IMG/VR virus record: IMGVR_UViG_2695420822_000010
Origin: a virus
Taxonomy: Duplodnaviria; Heunggongvirae; Uroviricota; Caudoviricetes
Direction: 5' to 3' (one strand)
DNA length: 5,566 nt
Shown: in pieces, positions 1 to 5,566 of the stretch
How positions within the stretch are numbered: the stretch's first letter is position 1
Layout of the letters: each line of letters opens with the position of its first letter
Program-made: the position numbers and the translations under genes
Notes under the pieces: generated by a model
What the model was told of the DNA's origin: nothing
The model's database searches: none
The model's input: only the letters and a program-made list of their open reading frames with translations

Positions 1-950
1 ACGCGCTTGCGGGTAAGCAACCGAAAGATGCCACCCTGACGGCGCTGGCCGGACTTACTACTGCGGCAGGCAAGTTTCCGTATTTTACGGGGAATGATGT
101 CGCCAGCCTGGCAACCCTGACAAAAGTCGGGCGGGATATTCTTGCGAAATCGACCGTTGCCGCCGTTATCGAATACCTCGGTTTACGAGAACTCGGCACA
201 AGCGGGGAGAAAATACCGTTACTCAGTACAGCGAATACCTGGACTAATCGACAAACATTCAGCGGTGGCCTTTCTGGTGAACTATCCGGCAATGCTTCTA
301 CAGCTGCAAAATTAAAAACTGCCAGGAAAATAAGCAATGTGGCTTTTGATGGTTCCTCCGATATCACATTAAAAGCAAGTCATGTTGGTGCGTTTGCCTT
401 AGGGAAAACAGGAAGCACCGTTGCGAATGATAAAGCAGTTGGATGGAACTGGAGTAGCGGAGCCTATAACGCAACTATTAGTGGTGCATCAACGTTAATT
501 ATTCATTTTTATATGGGAGAAGGAAGTTGTCCTGCAGCTCAGTTTCGGATTAATTATAAAAATGGCGGTATTTTTTATCGTTCAGCCCGTGATGGTTATG
601 GTTTTGAAGCCGACTGGTCCGAATTTTACACCACCAGAAAACCTTCAGCAGGAGATGTTGGTGCACTGCCGTTATCTGGTGGTCAACTGAATGGTGCACT
701 GGGTATCGGAACATCCAGTGCTCTTGGCGGTAATTCGATTGTATTGGGTGATAATGACACGGGCTTTAAACAAAAAGGCGATGGTAATCTGGATGTTTAT
801 GCTAATAACGTCCATGTTATGCGCTTTGTCTCCGGAAGCATTCAAAGTAATAAAACCATAAATATTACGGGACGTGTTAATCCCTCGGATTACGGTAACT
901 TTGATTCCCGCTATGTGAGAGATGTCAGACTTGGCACACGAGTTGTTTAG
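1..950 (+). CDS. stf: Side tail fibre protein (lambdoid Stf-like), C-terminal portion, cassette A. 5' end lies outside the window (codon phase 3); reading frame ends at an in-frame TAG at 948-950.
   Basis: The frame is open from base 3 to 950 with no stop. The translation (..[71 protein letters not shown]) shares a [14 protein letters not shown] block and a VRD(V/I)RLG block with the minus-strand cassette C protein (4292-5104). The supplied ORF 339..950 only starts at the first GTG; the true ORF continues upstream. Confidence 0.8.
   Translation, partial: ALAGKQPKDATLTALAGLTTAAGKFPYFTGNDVASLATLTKVGRDILAKSTVAAVIEYLGLRELGTSGEKIPLLSTANTWTNRQTFSGGLSGELSGNASTAAKLKTARKISNVAFDGSSDITLKASHVGAFALGKTGSTVANDKAVGWNWSSGAYNATISGASTLIIHFYMGEGSCPAAQFRINYKNGGIFYRSARDGYGFEADWSEFYTTRKPSAGDVGALPLSGGQLNGALGIGTSSALGGNSIVLGDNDTGFKQKGDGNLDVYANNVHVMRFVSGSIQSNKTINITGRVNPSDYGNFDSRYVRDVRLGTRVV
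166..191. other. Candidate serine-invertase crossover site (gix/hix/cix/pix-like), 12-2-12 imperfect dyad TTATCGAATACC-TC-GGTTTACGAGAA, inside the tail fibre coding sequence.
   Basis: Read directly. The left half TTATCGAATACC and the reverse complement of the right half TTCTCGTAAACC both fit the half-site TTATCnnAAACC of Hin/Gin-family crossover sites (consensus quoted from memory), with a 2-bp centre. It lies in frame in the tail fibre gene (encodes VIEYLGLRE), as gix sites do in Mu S. Confidence 0.55.
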
Positions 951-1100
951 ACCATGAAGAAAGGCGTGATGTATGAAAAATCAGGCCATGTAATCACGGG
1001 GCTTGGTATTATCGGTGAAGTCGATGGTGATGATCCGGCAGTATTCAGACCAATACAAAAGTTAATTAACGGAACATGGTATAACGTATCGCAGGTATAA
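951..1100 (+). pseudogene. In-frame continuation of cassette A after the TAG at 948-950; encodes the conserved tail-fibre C-terminal end (..[28 protein letters not shown]), stop TAA at 1098-1100. Together with 1-950 it forms one ancestral ORF interrupted by an amber codon.
   Basis: Same frame as 1-950. The translation [49 protein letters not shown] aligns with the C-termini of cassette C (..[41 protein letters not shown]) and cassette B (..[17 protein letters not shown]), and the homology runs straight across the TAG. A tfa start codon follows 2 nt after the stop, as at the other two cassettes. Confidence 0.7.
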
Positions 1101-1102
1101 TC

Positions 1103-1587
1103 ATGCAGCATTTAAAAAACATTGTCGCAGGTAATCCAAAAACCGTTGAACAATACCAGCTAACAAAGAATTTTGATGTTATCTGGTTATGGTCCGAAGA
1201 TGGAAAAAATTGGCATGAGGAATTAAAAAACTTTCAGGAGGATACAATAAAACTGGCTTACACAGTTGAGGGAATAATTATTGCTATAGACAAGGATGTA
1301 TCAGCAATTAATCCAGAAGGTTTAAGTGTCGTTGAGTTGCCTGATATTACAGCAAATCGCCGGGCTGATATTTCGGGCAACTGGATGTTCAAAGATGGTG
1401 CGGTGATAAAGCGAACTTATACCGAGGAAGAGCAAAGGCAACAAGCGGAAAATGAAAAGCAGAGCCTGCTGCAGCTCGTCAGGGATAAAACCCAGCTGTG
1501 GGACTCTCAGCTACAGCTGGGCATCATTTCCGATGAGAATAAACAAAAATTAACCGAGTGGATGCTCTATGCGCAGAAGGTTGAATC
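1103..1587 (+). CDS. tfa: Tail fibre assembly protein (Tfa family chaperone), cassette A; 3' end lost at the N-run 1588-1598.
   Basis: ATG at 1103, 2 nt after the tail-fibre stop. The translation [55 protein letters not shown] is homologous to the other two tfa copies in the window. The tail of the supplied ORF (1599-1660) is IS sequence read in an arbitrary frame after the gap and is not part of tfa. Confidence 0.85.
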
Positions 1588-1598: not shown

Positions 1599-1599
1599 T

Positions 1600-1839
1600 G
1601 AAAATCAACTTTCGATCAGTGAAGGCGCTTCCCGATTATCTCTTCCTGAAGGCACTTTAGGACAATGGGTTACCGCCGCCAGAAAAGGGCTCGGTACTCC
1701 TGGTTCCCGCACGGTGGCTGAACTGGAATCTGAAATTCTGCAACTGCGTAAGGCGTTAAATGAAGCTCGCCTTGAGCGAGATATATTAAAAAAAGCAACA
1801 GCGTATTTTGCACAGGAGTCGCTGAAAAATACGCGTTAA
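1600..1839 (+). CDS. IS3-family transposase OrfA, C-terminal fragment (..ENQLSISEGASRLSLPEGTLGQWVTAARKGLGTPGSRTVAELESEILQLRKALNEARLERDILKKATAYFAQESLKNTR*).
   Basis: Open frame from the gap edge to TAA at 1837-1839. It has the leucine-zipper-like C-terminus characteristic of IS3-family OrfA and carries the slippery A-run near its 3' end. Confidence 0.8.
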   Translation, partial: ENQLSISEGASRLSLPEGTLGQWVTAARKGLGTPGSRTVAELESEILQLRKALNEARLERDILKKATAYFAQESLKNTR

Positions 1840-1874
1840 TCGAACAATGGCGACAACAATTTCCCATTGAAGCG

Positions 1875-2693
1875 ATGTGTCAGGTATTTGGTGTATCCAG
1901 GAGCGGTTATTACAACTGGGTACAGCATGAACCCTCAGACAGAAAACAAAGTGATGAGCGGCTAAAACTGGAGATTAAGGTGGCACATATCCGCACTCGC
2001 GAAACATATGGAACCCGGCGGCTCCAGACGGAGCTGGCAGAGAATGGCATCATCGTTGGTCGTGACCGACTGGCACGTCTTCGTAAGGAGCTAAGGCTAC
2101 GCTGTAAGCAGAAACGCAAGTTCAGAGCGACTACGAACTCGAACCACAATCTGCCAGTTGCGCCAAATCTGCTGAACCAGACGTTCGCTCCTACAGCACC
2201 AAATCAGGTCTGGGTGGCGGACCTGACGTATGTTGCCACACAGGAGGGATGGTTGTACCTCGCTGGCATCAAAGATGTTTATACGTGCGAAATTGTCGGC
2301 TACGCCATGGGAGAGCGCATGACAAAAGAGCTGACAGGTAAAGCCCTGTTTATGGCGCTCAGGAGCCAGCGCCCACCTGCCGGGCTAATCCACCACTCTG
2401 ATCGAGGTTCACAGTACTGCGCATACGATTACCGGGTCATACAGGAGCAGTCTGGTCTGAAAACATCAATGTCGCGTAAAGGTAACTGTTACGACAACGC
2501 TCCGATGGAAAGCTTCTGGGGAACGCTGAAAAATGAGAGCCTGAGCCACTATCGTTTTAATAACCGGGATGAAGCCATCTCAGTAATACGGGAATACATT
2601 GAGATTTTCTACAATCGTCAGCGTCGTCACTCTCGTCTGGGGAATATCTCCCCGGCAGCCTTCAGGGAAAAATATCATCAGATGGCTGCTTAA
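1875..2693 (+). CDS. IS3-family transposase OrfB (DDE catalytic domain). The frame is open from 1791, so it is most likely expressed as an OrfAB fusion by -1 frameshifting at 1788-1794.
   Basis: The 272-aa ORF (MCQVFGVSRSGYYNW..VWVADLTYV..HSDRGSQY..CYDNAPMESFWGTLKNE..) carries the spacing and residues expected of an IS3-family DDE transposase. It lies in the -1 frame relative to OrfA and overlaps it. Confidence 0.9.
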   Translation: MCQVFGVSRSGYYNWVQHEPSDRKQSDERLKLEIKVAHIRTRETYGTRRLQTELAENGIIVGRDRLARLRKELRLRCKQKRKFRATTNSNHNLPVAPNLLNQTFAPTAPNQVWVADLTYVATQEGWLYLAGIKDVYTCEIVGYAMGERMTKELTGKALFMALRSQRPPAGLIHHSDRGSQYCAYDYRVIQEQSGLKTSMSRKGNCYDNAPMESFWGTLKNESLSHYRFNNRDEAISVIREYIEIFYNRQRRHSRLGNISPAAFREKYHQMAA

Positions 2694-2736
2694 AAAAAGA
2701 ACAAATGGTAGTGTCCGCTATTGCCAGTACACCTCA

Positions 2737-3003
2737 GAGTTTTACACCACAACCCGCAAACCCTCTGCGGGAGATGTTGGTGCATATACGCAGGCAGAAT
2801 GTAACTCAAGGTTTATTACAGGTATTCGCCTTGGTGGTCTGTTATCTGTTCAGACATGGAATGGTCCCGGATGGTCTGACAGGTCAGGTTATGTTGTTAC
2901 CGGTTCCGTTAACTCAAACAGAGATGAACTAATTGATACAACTCAGGCAAGGCCAATTCAGTATTGCATTAATGGGACGTGGTATAACGCGGGGAGTATT
3001 TAA
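2737..3003 (+). pseudogene. Tail fibre C-terminal cassette B, 3' fragment ([52 protein letters not shown]), with its 5' part displaced by the IS element.
   Basis: The supplied ORF 2599..3003 is IS terminal sequence up to 2736 and tail-fibre-like only from 2737. The fragment begins exactly at the motif EFYTT(T)RKPSAGDVGA, which is also present in cassette A at 621-665, and ends with the conserved RPIQ..I.G.WYN tip. A tfa start follows 2 nt later. Confidence 0.7.
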
Positions 3004-3005
3004 CG

Positions 3006-3695
3006 ATGATGCACTTAAAAAACATTTCTGCTGGTAATCCTGAAACAAAAGAGCAATACCAGCTAACGAAACAATTTAACATCAAATGGCTTTATACAGA
3101 GGATGGGAAAAACTGGTATGAGGAACAAAAGAACTTTCAGCCTGATACGTTGAAAATGGTCTATGACCACAACGGCGTTATTATTTGTATTGAAAAGGAT
3201 GTTTCAGCAATTAATCCGGAAGGCGCAAGCGTCGTTGAGGTTCCTGATATTACAGCAAATCGCCGGGCTGATATTTCGGGCAACTGGATGTTCAAAGATG
3301 GTGCGGTGATAAAGCGAACTTATACCGAGGAAGAGCAAAGGCAACAAGCGGAAAATGAAAAGCAGAGCCTGCTGCAGCTCGTCNNNNNNNNNNAGGTTCC
3401 TGATATTACAGCAAATCGCCGGGCTGATATTTCAGGTAAATGGATGTTCAAAGATGGCGTAGTGATAAAGCGAACTTATACCGGGGAAGAGCAGAGGCAA
3501 CAAGCGGAAAATGAAAAGCAAAGCCTGCTACAGCTCGTCAGGGATAAAACCCAGCTATGGGACTCACAGCTACGGCTGGGCATTATTTCCGACGAGAATA
3601 AACAAAAATTAACCGAGTGGATGCTCTATGCGCAGAAGGTCGAATCCACAGACACCTCCAGCCTGCCAGTAACGTTTCCCGAACAACCAGAATGA
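3006..3695 (+). CDS. tfa: Tail fibre assembly protein (Tfa family), cassette B. The ORF as assembled contains a 10-N gap (3384-3393) and a duplicated segment of roughly 140 bp, so the real protein is probably about 180 aa rather than 229.
   Basis: [22 protein letters not shown].. with stop TGA at 3693-3695. Segment 3243-3383 is identical to cassette A tfa 1340-1480. The sequence after the gap restarts at the same point (aggttcctgatattacagc..) as a roughly 94%-identical version. Confidence 0.8.
3384..3393. other. Run of 10 N inside tfa cassette B, flanked by two overlapping versions of the same tfa segment (contig-overlap join).
   Basis: Read directly; see the duplicated peptide [14 protein letters not shown](N/K)WMFKDG.. 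on both sides. Confidence 0.9.
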
Positions 3696-3698
3696 GAG

Positions 3699-3718
3699 AA
3701 GGCCCGCTATCGGGCCTT
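3699..3718. terminator. Perfect hairpin AAGGCCCG-CTAT-CGGGCCTT located 3 nt after the tfa cassette B stop, between the convergent tfa genes; candidate bidirectional intrinsic terminator.
   Basis: An 8-bp GC-rich stem with a 4-nt loop, read directly. The downstream U-tract cannot be assessed because the N-run starts at 3719. Confidence 0.5.
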
Positions 3719-3865
3719 NNNNNNNNNNNNNNNNNNNNNNNNNNNNNNNNNNNNNNNNNNNNNNNNNNNNNNNNNNNNNNNNNNNNNNNNNNNNNNNNNN
3801 NNNNNNNNNNNNNNNNNNNNNNNNNNNNNNNNNNNNNNNNNNNNNNNNNNNNNNNNNNNNNNNNN
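3719..3865. other. Run of 147 N; probably hides the 3' end of the minus-strand tfa (cassette C).
   Basis: tfa cassette C shows 141 codons before running into the gap; Tfa proteins in this window run to about 175-185 aa. Confidence 0.8.
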
Positions 3866-4290
3866 GCCATATTCAGCCTGACAGCGCGTTCCAGCGGCTG
3901 GATGACTGATTCAGCTTCGGAAAGCAATGCGGCCTTTTGTGATTCGGCCTGTTGTTGCAGTTCCTGTTCTGTATATTCCCTCTTTACTACTTTACCATCC
4001 AGAAACATCCATTTTCCGTTATTGTCTGCGTGACGATTTGCCGTAATATCAGGAACTTCAACTATGCTTAGCCCTTCAGGATTAATAGTTGAAACGTCTT
4101 TACTGACAGCAACGATGATGTTGTTCTCATCGTAAGCAATTTTTATGGTGTCTGGCTGAAAATTCTTTTGTTCCTCATACCAGTTTTTGCCATCTTCGCA
4201 AAAGAGCCATACCACGCCCGCTTTTTTAGTTAGCTGGTATTGTTCCGGTGTTTTCGGATTCCCGGCCTTAATATTTTTCAGGTGCATCAT
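3866..4290 (-). CDS. tfa: Tail fibre assembly protein (Tfa family), cassette C, minus strand; 3' end lies in the gap.
   Basis: The start is ATG ATG at complement 4290-4285 ([39 protein letters not shown]..), 1 nt after the stop of the minus-strand tail-fibre cassette. The first 12 codons of the supplied ORF ([12 protein letters not shown]) overlap the tail-fibre stop and are not used. Confidence 0.8.
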
Positions 4291-4291
4291 C

Positions 4292-5104
4292 TTAAACACT
4301 CCCCACGTTGTACCATATTCCCCCAATCAATTTCTGAATTGGCCTTCTGGCAACAGTGTCGACAATATCATCCGCATTGCTGTTAATTGCGGCTGTTAAA
4401 ACATAACCTGACGCATCGCCAAAGCCGTAGTCGCGCCATACGTTTTTATATTCAATGCTGCCAAGACGAATATCCCGAACGACATGATTATGCAGCCATG
4501 TGCTTAACCAGTTGTTTTCCCACACTGAACCATAAATATCGCCACTAGACGCAACTTGCGCACCACTTCCCAGCGCAAATCCCCCATCTGTTTTAAAAAT
4601 GAAATCACCACCACCATCTGAACCGTTATTAATATGAACACCATCACCACCGTTATCTTTCCACAAAAACATACGAATTCTTCCGTCTTCGTTGGCGAAT
4701 GTAATGTGGTGGCGGTAATTACTTTTTAATCTAAAATTGCTGCCATTAGATTCAATATCTTTATAAAGATGTAATCCTAACTCATCAATATGTCCGATGC
4801 GCGAACCATTTGAATAGAAGCTAATAATACCATCTCCATCTTGCCTAAATCCGGTGTCGTTATCTCCCAGAACAATGGAGTTTTCACCCAGTGCGTTATC
4901 AGTAGCTCCAATAGCTAGACCTCCTTTAATTTTGGCCCCGTGGCTGACAGATATAGCACCTGTTCTCAGATTTATAGCGAATGGCCTTAATGGGCCGATA
5001 TTACCGTTTTCGCCTTGTCCTTCAGCCGTCGGAATGAAATGAAGAAAATCTTCTGAACGACGGAAAATTAGACCGAAGGTATCATTGAAAATTCGCAGCG
5101 CATT
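4292..5104 (-). CDS. Tail fibre C-terminal cassette C, minus strand (receptor-binding tip variant); 5' part hidden by the 381-N run.
   Basis: Stop TAA at complement 4294-4292. The translation ..[58 protein letters not shown] shares blocks with cassette A but carries about 74 extra residues between the GDNDTGF block and the tip. Confidence 0.8.
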
Positions 5105-5485
5105 NNNNNNNNNNNNNNNNNNNNNNNNNNNNNNNNNNNNNNNNNNNNNNNNNNNNNNNNNNNNNNNNNNNNNNNNNNNNNNNNNNNNNNNNNNNNNNNN
5201 NNNNNNNNNNNNNNNNNNNNNNNNNNNNNNNNNNNNNNNNNNNNNNNNNNNNNNNNNNNNNNNNNNNNNNNNNNNNNNNNNNNNNNNNNNNNNNNNNNNN
5301 NNNNNNNNNNNNNNNNNNNNNNNNNNNNNNNNNNNNNNNNNNNNNNNNNNNNNNNNNNNNNNNNNNNNNNNNNNNNNNNNNNNNNNNNNNNNNNNNNNNN
5401 NNNNNNNNNNNNNNNNNNNNNNNNNNNNNNNNNNNNNNNNNNNNNNNNNNNNNNNNNNNNNNNNNNNNNNNNNNNNNNNNNNNNN
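5105..5485. other. Run of 381 N inside the minus-strand tail-fibre cassette.
   Basis: Read directly. Confidence 0.9.
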
Positions 5486-5566
5486 GTCACTGTATGCGGC
5501 ATCTTGTCGTGCTGGTGGTGGAAGCCTAGAAAAAGTATCGGGTGTTGCTGAACCGTGTTGATACAT

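Follow-up and report, generated by a model that had tools for sequence, protein, structure and literature searches.

A 141-bp Identical Block in Two Tail-Fiber Chaperone Genes of a Draft Shigella sonnei Scaffold Is Probably an Assembly Chimera

Introduction

How do two tail-fiber chaperone (tfa) genes that are clearly diverged in their 5′ halves come to be identical, base for base, over 141 bp further downstream? The question is raised by the window, by which we mean the whole 5,566-bp stretch of DNA analyzed here; it corresponds, over all 5,566 bp, to the entire scaffold CXBP01000245.1 of the draft assembly GCA_001255875.1 (Shigella sonnei-type). An earlier note on this DNA left two readings side by side, namely, a recent gene conversion that homogenized the 3′ halves of the genes or a chimeric sequence built by the assembler from two cassettes. 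The identical block is, in our judgment, probably an artifact of short-read assembly and scaffolding in an S. sonnei draft that mixes two prophages, and not a biological event. The overlap of the sequences flanking a gap, the agreement of the post-gap sequence with tfaB of complete genomes, the absence of the junction elsewhere, and the order of the contigs in finished genomes favor the chimera and speak against conversion.

Results

Composition of the Window

Four runs of N (gap 1, 1588–1598, 11 nt; gap 2, 3384–3393, 10 nt; gap 3, 3719–3865, 147 nt; gap 4, 5105–5485, 381 nt) divide the window into five contigs of 1587, 1785, 325, 1239, and 81 bp. The features that they carry are as follows, with fetched loci and contigs designated by L numbers.

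1–1100, plus strand: lambdoid side-tail-fiber gene, 3′ part (constant region, crossover site, tip A); matches PF12604 gp37_C
166–191, no strand: gix/cix-like crossover site TTATCGAATACCTCGGTTTACGAGAA where the constant part meets tip A; inversion between S. sonnei L012 and L009
1103–1587, plus strand: tfaA, gene positions 1–485, cut by gap 1; authentic copy, PF02413 Caudo_TAP, locus-1 alleles at all diagnostic positions
1340–1480, plus strand: first copy of the block, genuine tfaA sequence; 100% identical to tfaA of 10 S. sonnei loci and E. coli NCTC86
1588–1598, no strand: gap 1, 11 N, with tfaA position 485 on its left and IS600 position 127 on its right
1599–2736, plus strand: IS600 positions 127–1264, including the orfB transposase; 100% identical to S. 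sonnei L006 9656–10794, rve and HTH_21 domains
2737–3003, plus strand: tail-fiber tip B, 3′ end, 88 codons; abuts the right end of IS600 directly
3006–3277, plus strand: tfaB gene positions 1–272, authentic B; 0 differences from tfaB of E. coli FDAARGOS_943 (L003)
3278–3383, plus strand: end of contig 2, gene positions 273–378, suspected chimeric part; tfaA alleles at 10/10 diagnostic sites
3384–3393, no strand: gap 2, 10 N; the flanking contig ends overlap by 146 bp and differ at 10 sites
3394–3695, plus strand: tfaB gene positions 233–534, authentic B; 0 differences from L003 tfaB, B alleles at 235, 237, and 273–480
3696–3718, no strand: spacer between the convergent tfa genes, GC-rich inverted repeat; locus-1-type alleles at gene coordinates 535, 537, and 546
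3866–4290, minus strand: tfaC, first 141 codons, 3′ end in gap 3; PF02413, 100% identical to S. sonnei L009 and L012
4292–5104, minus strand: tail-fiber tip C, inverted cassette; PF20744 gp37_trimer, 100% identical to S. sonnei L009 and L012
5486–5566, no strand: 81-bp contig beyond the right crossover site; 100% identical to L012 10408–10488

Two Homologous Chaperone Genes and the Block They Share

Positions 1340–1480 equal 3243–3383 at 141/141 positions, exactly as the earlier note had it. The left edge of the block is a mismatch (1339 against 3242), and the right edge is the first N of 3384–3393; because the 10-N run begins there, the right edge is the end of a contig and not a biological boundary. 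A chance match can be eliminated as the source of the identity since tfaA and tfaB are homologues. Their authentic alleles are 92.9% identical across the block region, and what calls for an explanation is that this copy reaches 100% instead.

The divergence of the 5′ halves is equally evident, with 70 mismatches over gene positions 1–237 (70.5% identity) against 94.6% identity between authentic tfaA and tfaB at nt 238–534, the change being abrupt at approximately position 238. The proposal that the 5′ half tracks the cognate tip while the 3′ half is shared is borne out for the authentic genes by these two values, and the identical block is not needed for it. Within the 3′ halves, the two genes have exactly shared stretches of 35, 47, 54, 71, and 93 bp. 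The post-gap piece differs from tfaA at 18 of 253 comparable bp. It also differs from the pre-gap piece, as had been noted, though at exactly 10 sites in the 146-bp overlap rather than at about 15 (gene positions 273, 276, 279, 297, 299, 300, 323, 333, 360, and 369).

The PF02413 (Caudo_TAP) family of Tfa proteins has phage Mu U/U′, P2 G, and lambda Tfa among its examples. TfaA, TfaB, and the partial TfaC match its profile with 117.8, 126.9, and 74 bits, respectively (cut-off 22.1), and the tail-fiber tips match gp37_C or gp37_trimer. Each chaperone gene sits immediately after its tip: the distance from the end of the tip to the start of the gene is 3 nt both for tip A and tfaA (1100 to 1103) and for tip B and tfaB (3003 to 3006), and on the minus strand a single nucleotide separates the tip C stop codon (4292–4294) from the tfaC start at 4290. 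Authentic TfaA and TfaB are identical at 55/79 residues of the N-terminal part and at 94/98 residues of the C-terminal part; the C-terminal sequence of TfaC differs, and the 3′ half is common to A and B only. The passage of PMC9608196 that cites North et al. (2019, Nat Microbiol 4:1645) describes a nonconserved N-terminal domain of Tfa that binds the fiber tip and a conserved C-terminal helical domain that drives trimerization. The variable N-terminal part, here predicted to bind the fiber, and the conserved C-terminal part follow this published pattern and are not new.

Sequence on Either Side of Gap 2

In the two closest complete genomes, the pieces before and after gap 2 map over one another, and the overlap can be read directly from the coordinates. 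On NZ_CP065615.1 (L003), window 2737–3383 corresponds to 6351–6997 and window 3394–3718 to 6852–7176; on NZ_CM177019.1, the pre-gap piece corresponds to 2474819–2475465 and the post-gap piece to 2475320–2475644. Both genomes have one undivided tfaB of 534 nt, which encodes WP_000972127.1. The comparison with complete genomes that the earlier note proposed thus returns one tfaB, and it is the post-gap version: L003 tfaB agrees with the pre-gap piece at gene positions 1–272 and with the post-gap piece at 233–534, with 0 differences. Tip B and tfaB taken overall are 98.5% identical to the P2-like prophages L003 and L016–L018.

Phasing of the alleles, likewise a direct observation, places the tfaA allele in the pre-gap piece at all 10 sites where the two pieces differ. 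The switch from B to A occurs within gene positions 238–272 (window 3243–3277), 35 bp that are naturally identical in tfaA and tfaB, and the pre-gap contig stops 106 bp past this shared stretch. The post-gap contig opens with B-specific bases at 235 and 237, which means that the scaffold contains both a B5′–B3′ link and a B5′–A3′ link. One tfaB gene could not bear both, and B5′–B3′ is the form seen elsewhere. A gene conversion would have cost the recipient its original sequence, and here the tfaB 3′ half is kept in the scaffold at 3394–3695.

We also considered contig 3 as a second chimera because it passes from a B-type tfa to locus-1 alleles at 535, 537, and 546. This was rejected, as the same combination is present in L031, L035–L037, and L039, and the three sites are therefore not strictly diagnostic.

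If the scaffold were essentially right, it would describe a three-cassette locus in which tfaB carries an in-frame tandem duplication of 156 bp (52 codons) whose first copy was homogenized with tfaA, a reading that we hold to be highly improbable. The two copies begin 156 bp apart (3243 and 3399), a distance divisible by three, and one 229-codon open reading frame (ORF) spans the Ns, both of which suit a duplication; however, one period in three would preserve the frame by chance. The exact TfaB protein occurs on 590 contigs, in P2-like prophages with baseplate, tail-fiber H-like, invertase, tape-measure, and sheath genes, and it is 177 aa long in 590/590, which argues against a duplicated form. 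The ORF through the Ns of gap 2 is recorded once, on CXBP01000245.1 itself, and this 229-codon "tfaB" corresponds to no real protein.

The coexistence of two versions of the same 146 bp in one assembly could also point to a mixed template, that is, two strains or subpopulations that contributed tfaB and a recombinant allele, with both versions kept by the assembler. We give this little credence. The second version is exactly the tfaA of the same scaffold, and since it is already present there, an extra source is unnecessary.

Arrangement of the Contigs in Finished Genomes

In S. sonnei L012, window 1–1587 maps to 7048–8634, 3866–5104 to 8815–10053, and 5486–5566 to 10408–10488, and the matches of these three pieces to L012 and L013 are 99.8–100% identical. 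Contig 1 matches complete genomes of S. sonnei at 99.9% identity. The distance from the end of contig 1 (tfaA position 485) to contig 4, measured directly, is 180 bp in L006, L009, L010, L012, and L013, which make up the complete set of fetched S. sonnei loci, finished or chromosome-scale, that cover the interval. IS600, tip B, and tfaB are absent between contigs 1 and 4 in the finished S. sonnei L012 and L013, and the IS600–tip B–tfaB locus was not found in any finished S. sonnei genome. The earlier note had placed cassettes A and B next to each other in one locus; this appears not to hold, as the two are not neighbors in finished S. sonnei. They appear to be neighbors because contigs of two prophages are interleaved, apparently an artifact of scaffolding.

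The 180-bp spacing in these five loci also stands against a three-cassette locus, and so does the size of gap 1. The gap would have to hold 49 nt from the end of tfaA, the spacer, and the initial 126 nt of IS600, at least 175 nt in total, and because this cannot fit into 11 nt, the join cannot be colinear DNA. Gap 1 is thereby a second indication that two loci are interleaved in the scaffold. Gaps 3 and 4 exceed the matching intervals of finished genomes by 39 and 27 nt. We rejected the possibility that the Ns are masked sequence of equal length; with gaps 3 and 4 too long and gap 1 far too short, they are scaffold estimates. A novel locus was considered as well, given that 0 of 5,426 complete E. 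coli genomes cover at least 80% of the window, and was set aside in that the interleaving of two loci explains this result.

The order of contig 3 and contig 4, with tfaB beside tfaC, does recur in L039 (IMGVR_UViG_2693429557_000008) and, in diverged form, in E. coli E66 (L002), which would favor a three-cassette locus. L039 is the sole contig that matches contig 3 over 325 bp and runs into tfaC. It is, however, a sister scaffold, joined through a single N at 3141, the position that corresponds to base 1 of the window; in it a complete tfaB adjoins tfaC, and a second tfaB 3′ fragment adjoins a P2-type tfa. We did not accept L039 as proof that tfaB and tfaC are neighbors, because it too was scaffolded from short reads, with one N at a join and the tfaB 3′ fragment present in duplicate.

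We note that separate draft assemblies break or mis-join at the same places in the tfa region. In many S. sonnei drafts, TfaA is split into partial proteins of 53 aa and 123/124 aa (P0151, P0153, P0155) on contigs of 1.2–4 kb. These partial proteins point to a recurrent contig break at tfaA codon 53, possibly an IS insertion in some lineages.

The Junction in Other Sequences

Every tfa copy in the fetched loci was phased at the sites that separate S. sonnei tfaA from P2-type tfaB. Among 47 other tfa copies, 22 are A5′/A3′ (10 S. sonnei chromosomal loci, E. coli NCTC86, and 11 IMG/VR contigs) and 23 are B5′/B3′, with two distant alleles not classed; the phased set includes 10 loci that encode the exact TfaB protein, mostly in P2-like prophages. 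Mixed copies were found only on the Logan contigs L026 (B5′/A3′, 1721 bp) and L027 (A5′/B3′, 1686 bp), which are automated short-read contigs of ∼1.7 kb. The absence of the junction elsewhere was observed directly: among 185,579 species-representative genomes, 2.9 million viral contigs, and 241 million metagenome records, nothing matches a 53-nt chimeric junction sequence exactly. In the viral contigs, control B/B and A/A junctions have 11 matches each, and the best match of the 184-bp junction region among 5,426 complete E. coli genomes is 95.7%. In the IMG genome 2695420708, both loci are present in the parental phase, one on contig L038 and the other on contig L049, so that a genome with both prophages and unrecombined genes does exist.

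These results bear on gene conversion, which would have replaced at least 106 bp of the P2-like tfaB with the matching part of the lambdoid tfaA in a recent event, contig 3 then deriving from a third tfa copy. Stated in terms of the prophages, the chaperone gene of a P2-like prophage would have copied the sequence of its C-terminal domain from an unrelated cryptic lambdoid prophage on the same S. sonnei chromosome, with L026 and L027 as further independent events. We consider this unlikely, although several observations are in line with it. The 35-bp perfectly shared stretch at the switch is enough for RecA-dependent exchange. L026, from an unrelated run (SRR13855169; independent reads, other assembler), is 100% identical to window 2734–3383 and has the same B5′→A3′ switch, and L027 has the reciprocal one. 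If L026 is correct, such recombinants would occur in nature. More distant alleles are naturally mosaic at these sites, as described below. A switch within an exactly shared stretch is expected both for homologous recombination and for mis-traversal of an assembly graph.

On the other side, conversion needs three or more tfa copies, as contig 1 is A5′–A3′ and contig 3 links the B-specific bases 235 and 237 to the B 3′ half. The junction is reproduced in one 1.7-kb Logan contig and in no complete genome, long contig, or independent finished or long-read sequence. Each full-length chimeric protein occurs on a single short Logan contig, compared with 590 contigs for TfaB and at least 1000 contigs, named S. 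sonnei or Shigella, for the full 177-aa TfaA, chromosomes being included among the contigs that encode the parental proteins. Finally, the block stops at a contig end without a resolved tract boundary.

At the same diagnostic sites, more distant tfa alleles from complete genomes and longer contigs (L001, L002, L004, L021, L022) are fine-scale mosaics, an example of the patchwork being E. coli 720632 (1222221111111122). They imply that recombination in the region happens over evolutionary time, and from the alleles compared here the conserved tfa 3′ half and the spacer have the appearance of a zone in which recombination occurs naturally on longer time scales. Patchwork alleles across the tfa 3′ half and spacer are also present in L031 and L035–L037.

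The Invertible Segment, Tip A, and IS600

The site at 166–191, which we take to resemble the gix consensus, marks one end of an invertible segment. Between L012 and L009, a 2.95-kb segment is inverted, with 25-bp overlaps at L012 7209–7233 (window 162–186) and 10134–10158; in that comparison the central 2.95 kb runs collinear, the sequence on both sides of it is inverted, and the right-hand crossover site corresponds to gap 4 of the window. The segment, which comprises tip A, tfaA, tfaC, and tip C, is found in one orientation in L012 and L013 and in the other in L009, L011, and L014. L011 and L012 are two ends of one record, UGZB01000001.1, which suggests that both orientations are present in one culture. 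No intact adjacent serine invertase gene was found; S. sonnei L006 has a 60-aa PF00239 fragment, and recombinase fragments are annotated in E. coli NCTC86 and E66. An invertase of another prophage may act in trans. The crossover sites play no part in the identical block, which lies inside the tfa genes.

Tip A contains an in-frame TAG at 948–950, which splits the gene, where E. coli NCTC86 has CAG. The 48-aa ORF at 954–1100 that the TAG creates is present in 2,201 protein-collection blocks, including that of the S. sonnei 53G chromosome (HE616528.1), which indicates that S. sonnei is fixed for the nonsense mutation and that the fiber gene is a pseudogene.

IS600 is annotated as such in E. coli 720632 (L001). 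Its right end in the window meets tip B (2736/2737) at the codons EFYTT, where the tips diverge from the shared fiber part. The IS600–tip B junction was found in none of the viral contigs, and the 134-aa ORF that spans it is without a record in other assemblies. We note that IS600 occurs elsewhere in the same invertible region of other Shigella-type P2-like prophages (L017, L021, L023, L031, and L037).

Discussion

The explanation that we regard as probable, an assembly chimera, would begin with an isolate that has two paralogous tail-fiber chaperone genes, each in a different prophage. One, tfaA, would belong to a cryptic lambdoid prophage beside trp with the order tip A, tfaA, tfaC, tip C, and the other, tfaB, would follow tip B in a P2-like prophage, here cut by IS600. 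The contig with IS600 and tip B would be correct through tfaB to gene position 272; reads of tfaA would then have extended contig 2 from inside the 35-bp shared stretch at 3243–3277 so that its final 106 bp carry tfaA alleles, and the genuine tfaB 3′ half would have been built as a separate contig of 325 bp. With ends that overlap by 146 bp and mismatch at 10 sites, the two contigs would have been unmergeable, and a minimal gap of 10 N would have been written between them. Contig 3 resembles both loci, and the scaffolder may have used it to thread the contigs of the two prophages together. The behavior of the assembler, like the particular step at which it erred (graph traversal, gap filling), is something that we infer. 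A genome with just two genes, A5′A3′ and B5′B3′, accounts for all of the contigs with the exception of the last 106 bp of contig 2.

The scaffold is accordingly unfit to be read as a three-cassette host-range locus. More generally, tail-fiber and tfa regions in draft Shigella and E. coli genomes with multiple prophages are prone to chimeric contig ends that mimic conversion or duplication. Were gene conversion true after all, coresident prophages would actively exchange a conserved module of their tail-fiber chaperones, and a real block would be a modest case of conversion between prophages. The biological weight of the finding is small, and its value is practical.

Several known systems bear comparison with this locus. 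The Din family comprises invertible tail-fiber segments that determine host range, such as the Mu G segment with Gin, the P1 C segment with Cin, and the e14 P segment with Pin. The lambdoid locus resembles them in its opposed tip-plus-tfa cassettes after a constant fiber part, its gix-like site, and the occurrence of both orientations, and it differs in that the invertase is only a 60-residue fragment in S. sonnei. With the Tfa family it shares the PF02413 matches of TfaA, TfaB, and TfaC, the position of each gene after its tip, and, between A and B, a variable N-terminal and a conserved C-terminal part, whereas the exact 141-bp identity exceeds natural conservation and is not a trait of the family. 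The block itself is comparable to the chimeric contig ends that repeats induce, having paralogues of ∼95% identity, exact stretches of 35–93 bp, and a switch within a shared stretch. The scaffold as a whole, with a 146-bp overlap across a 10-N gap and an order of contigs that contradicts finished genomes, is likewise comparable to the interleaved scaffolds that repeats induce.
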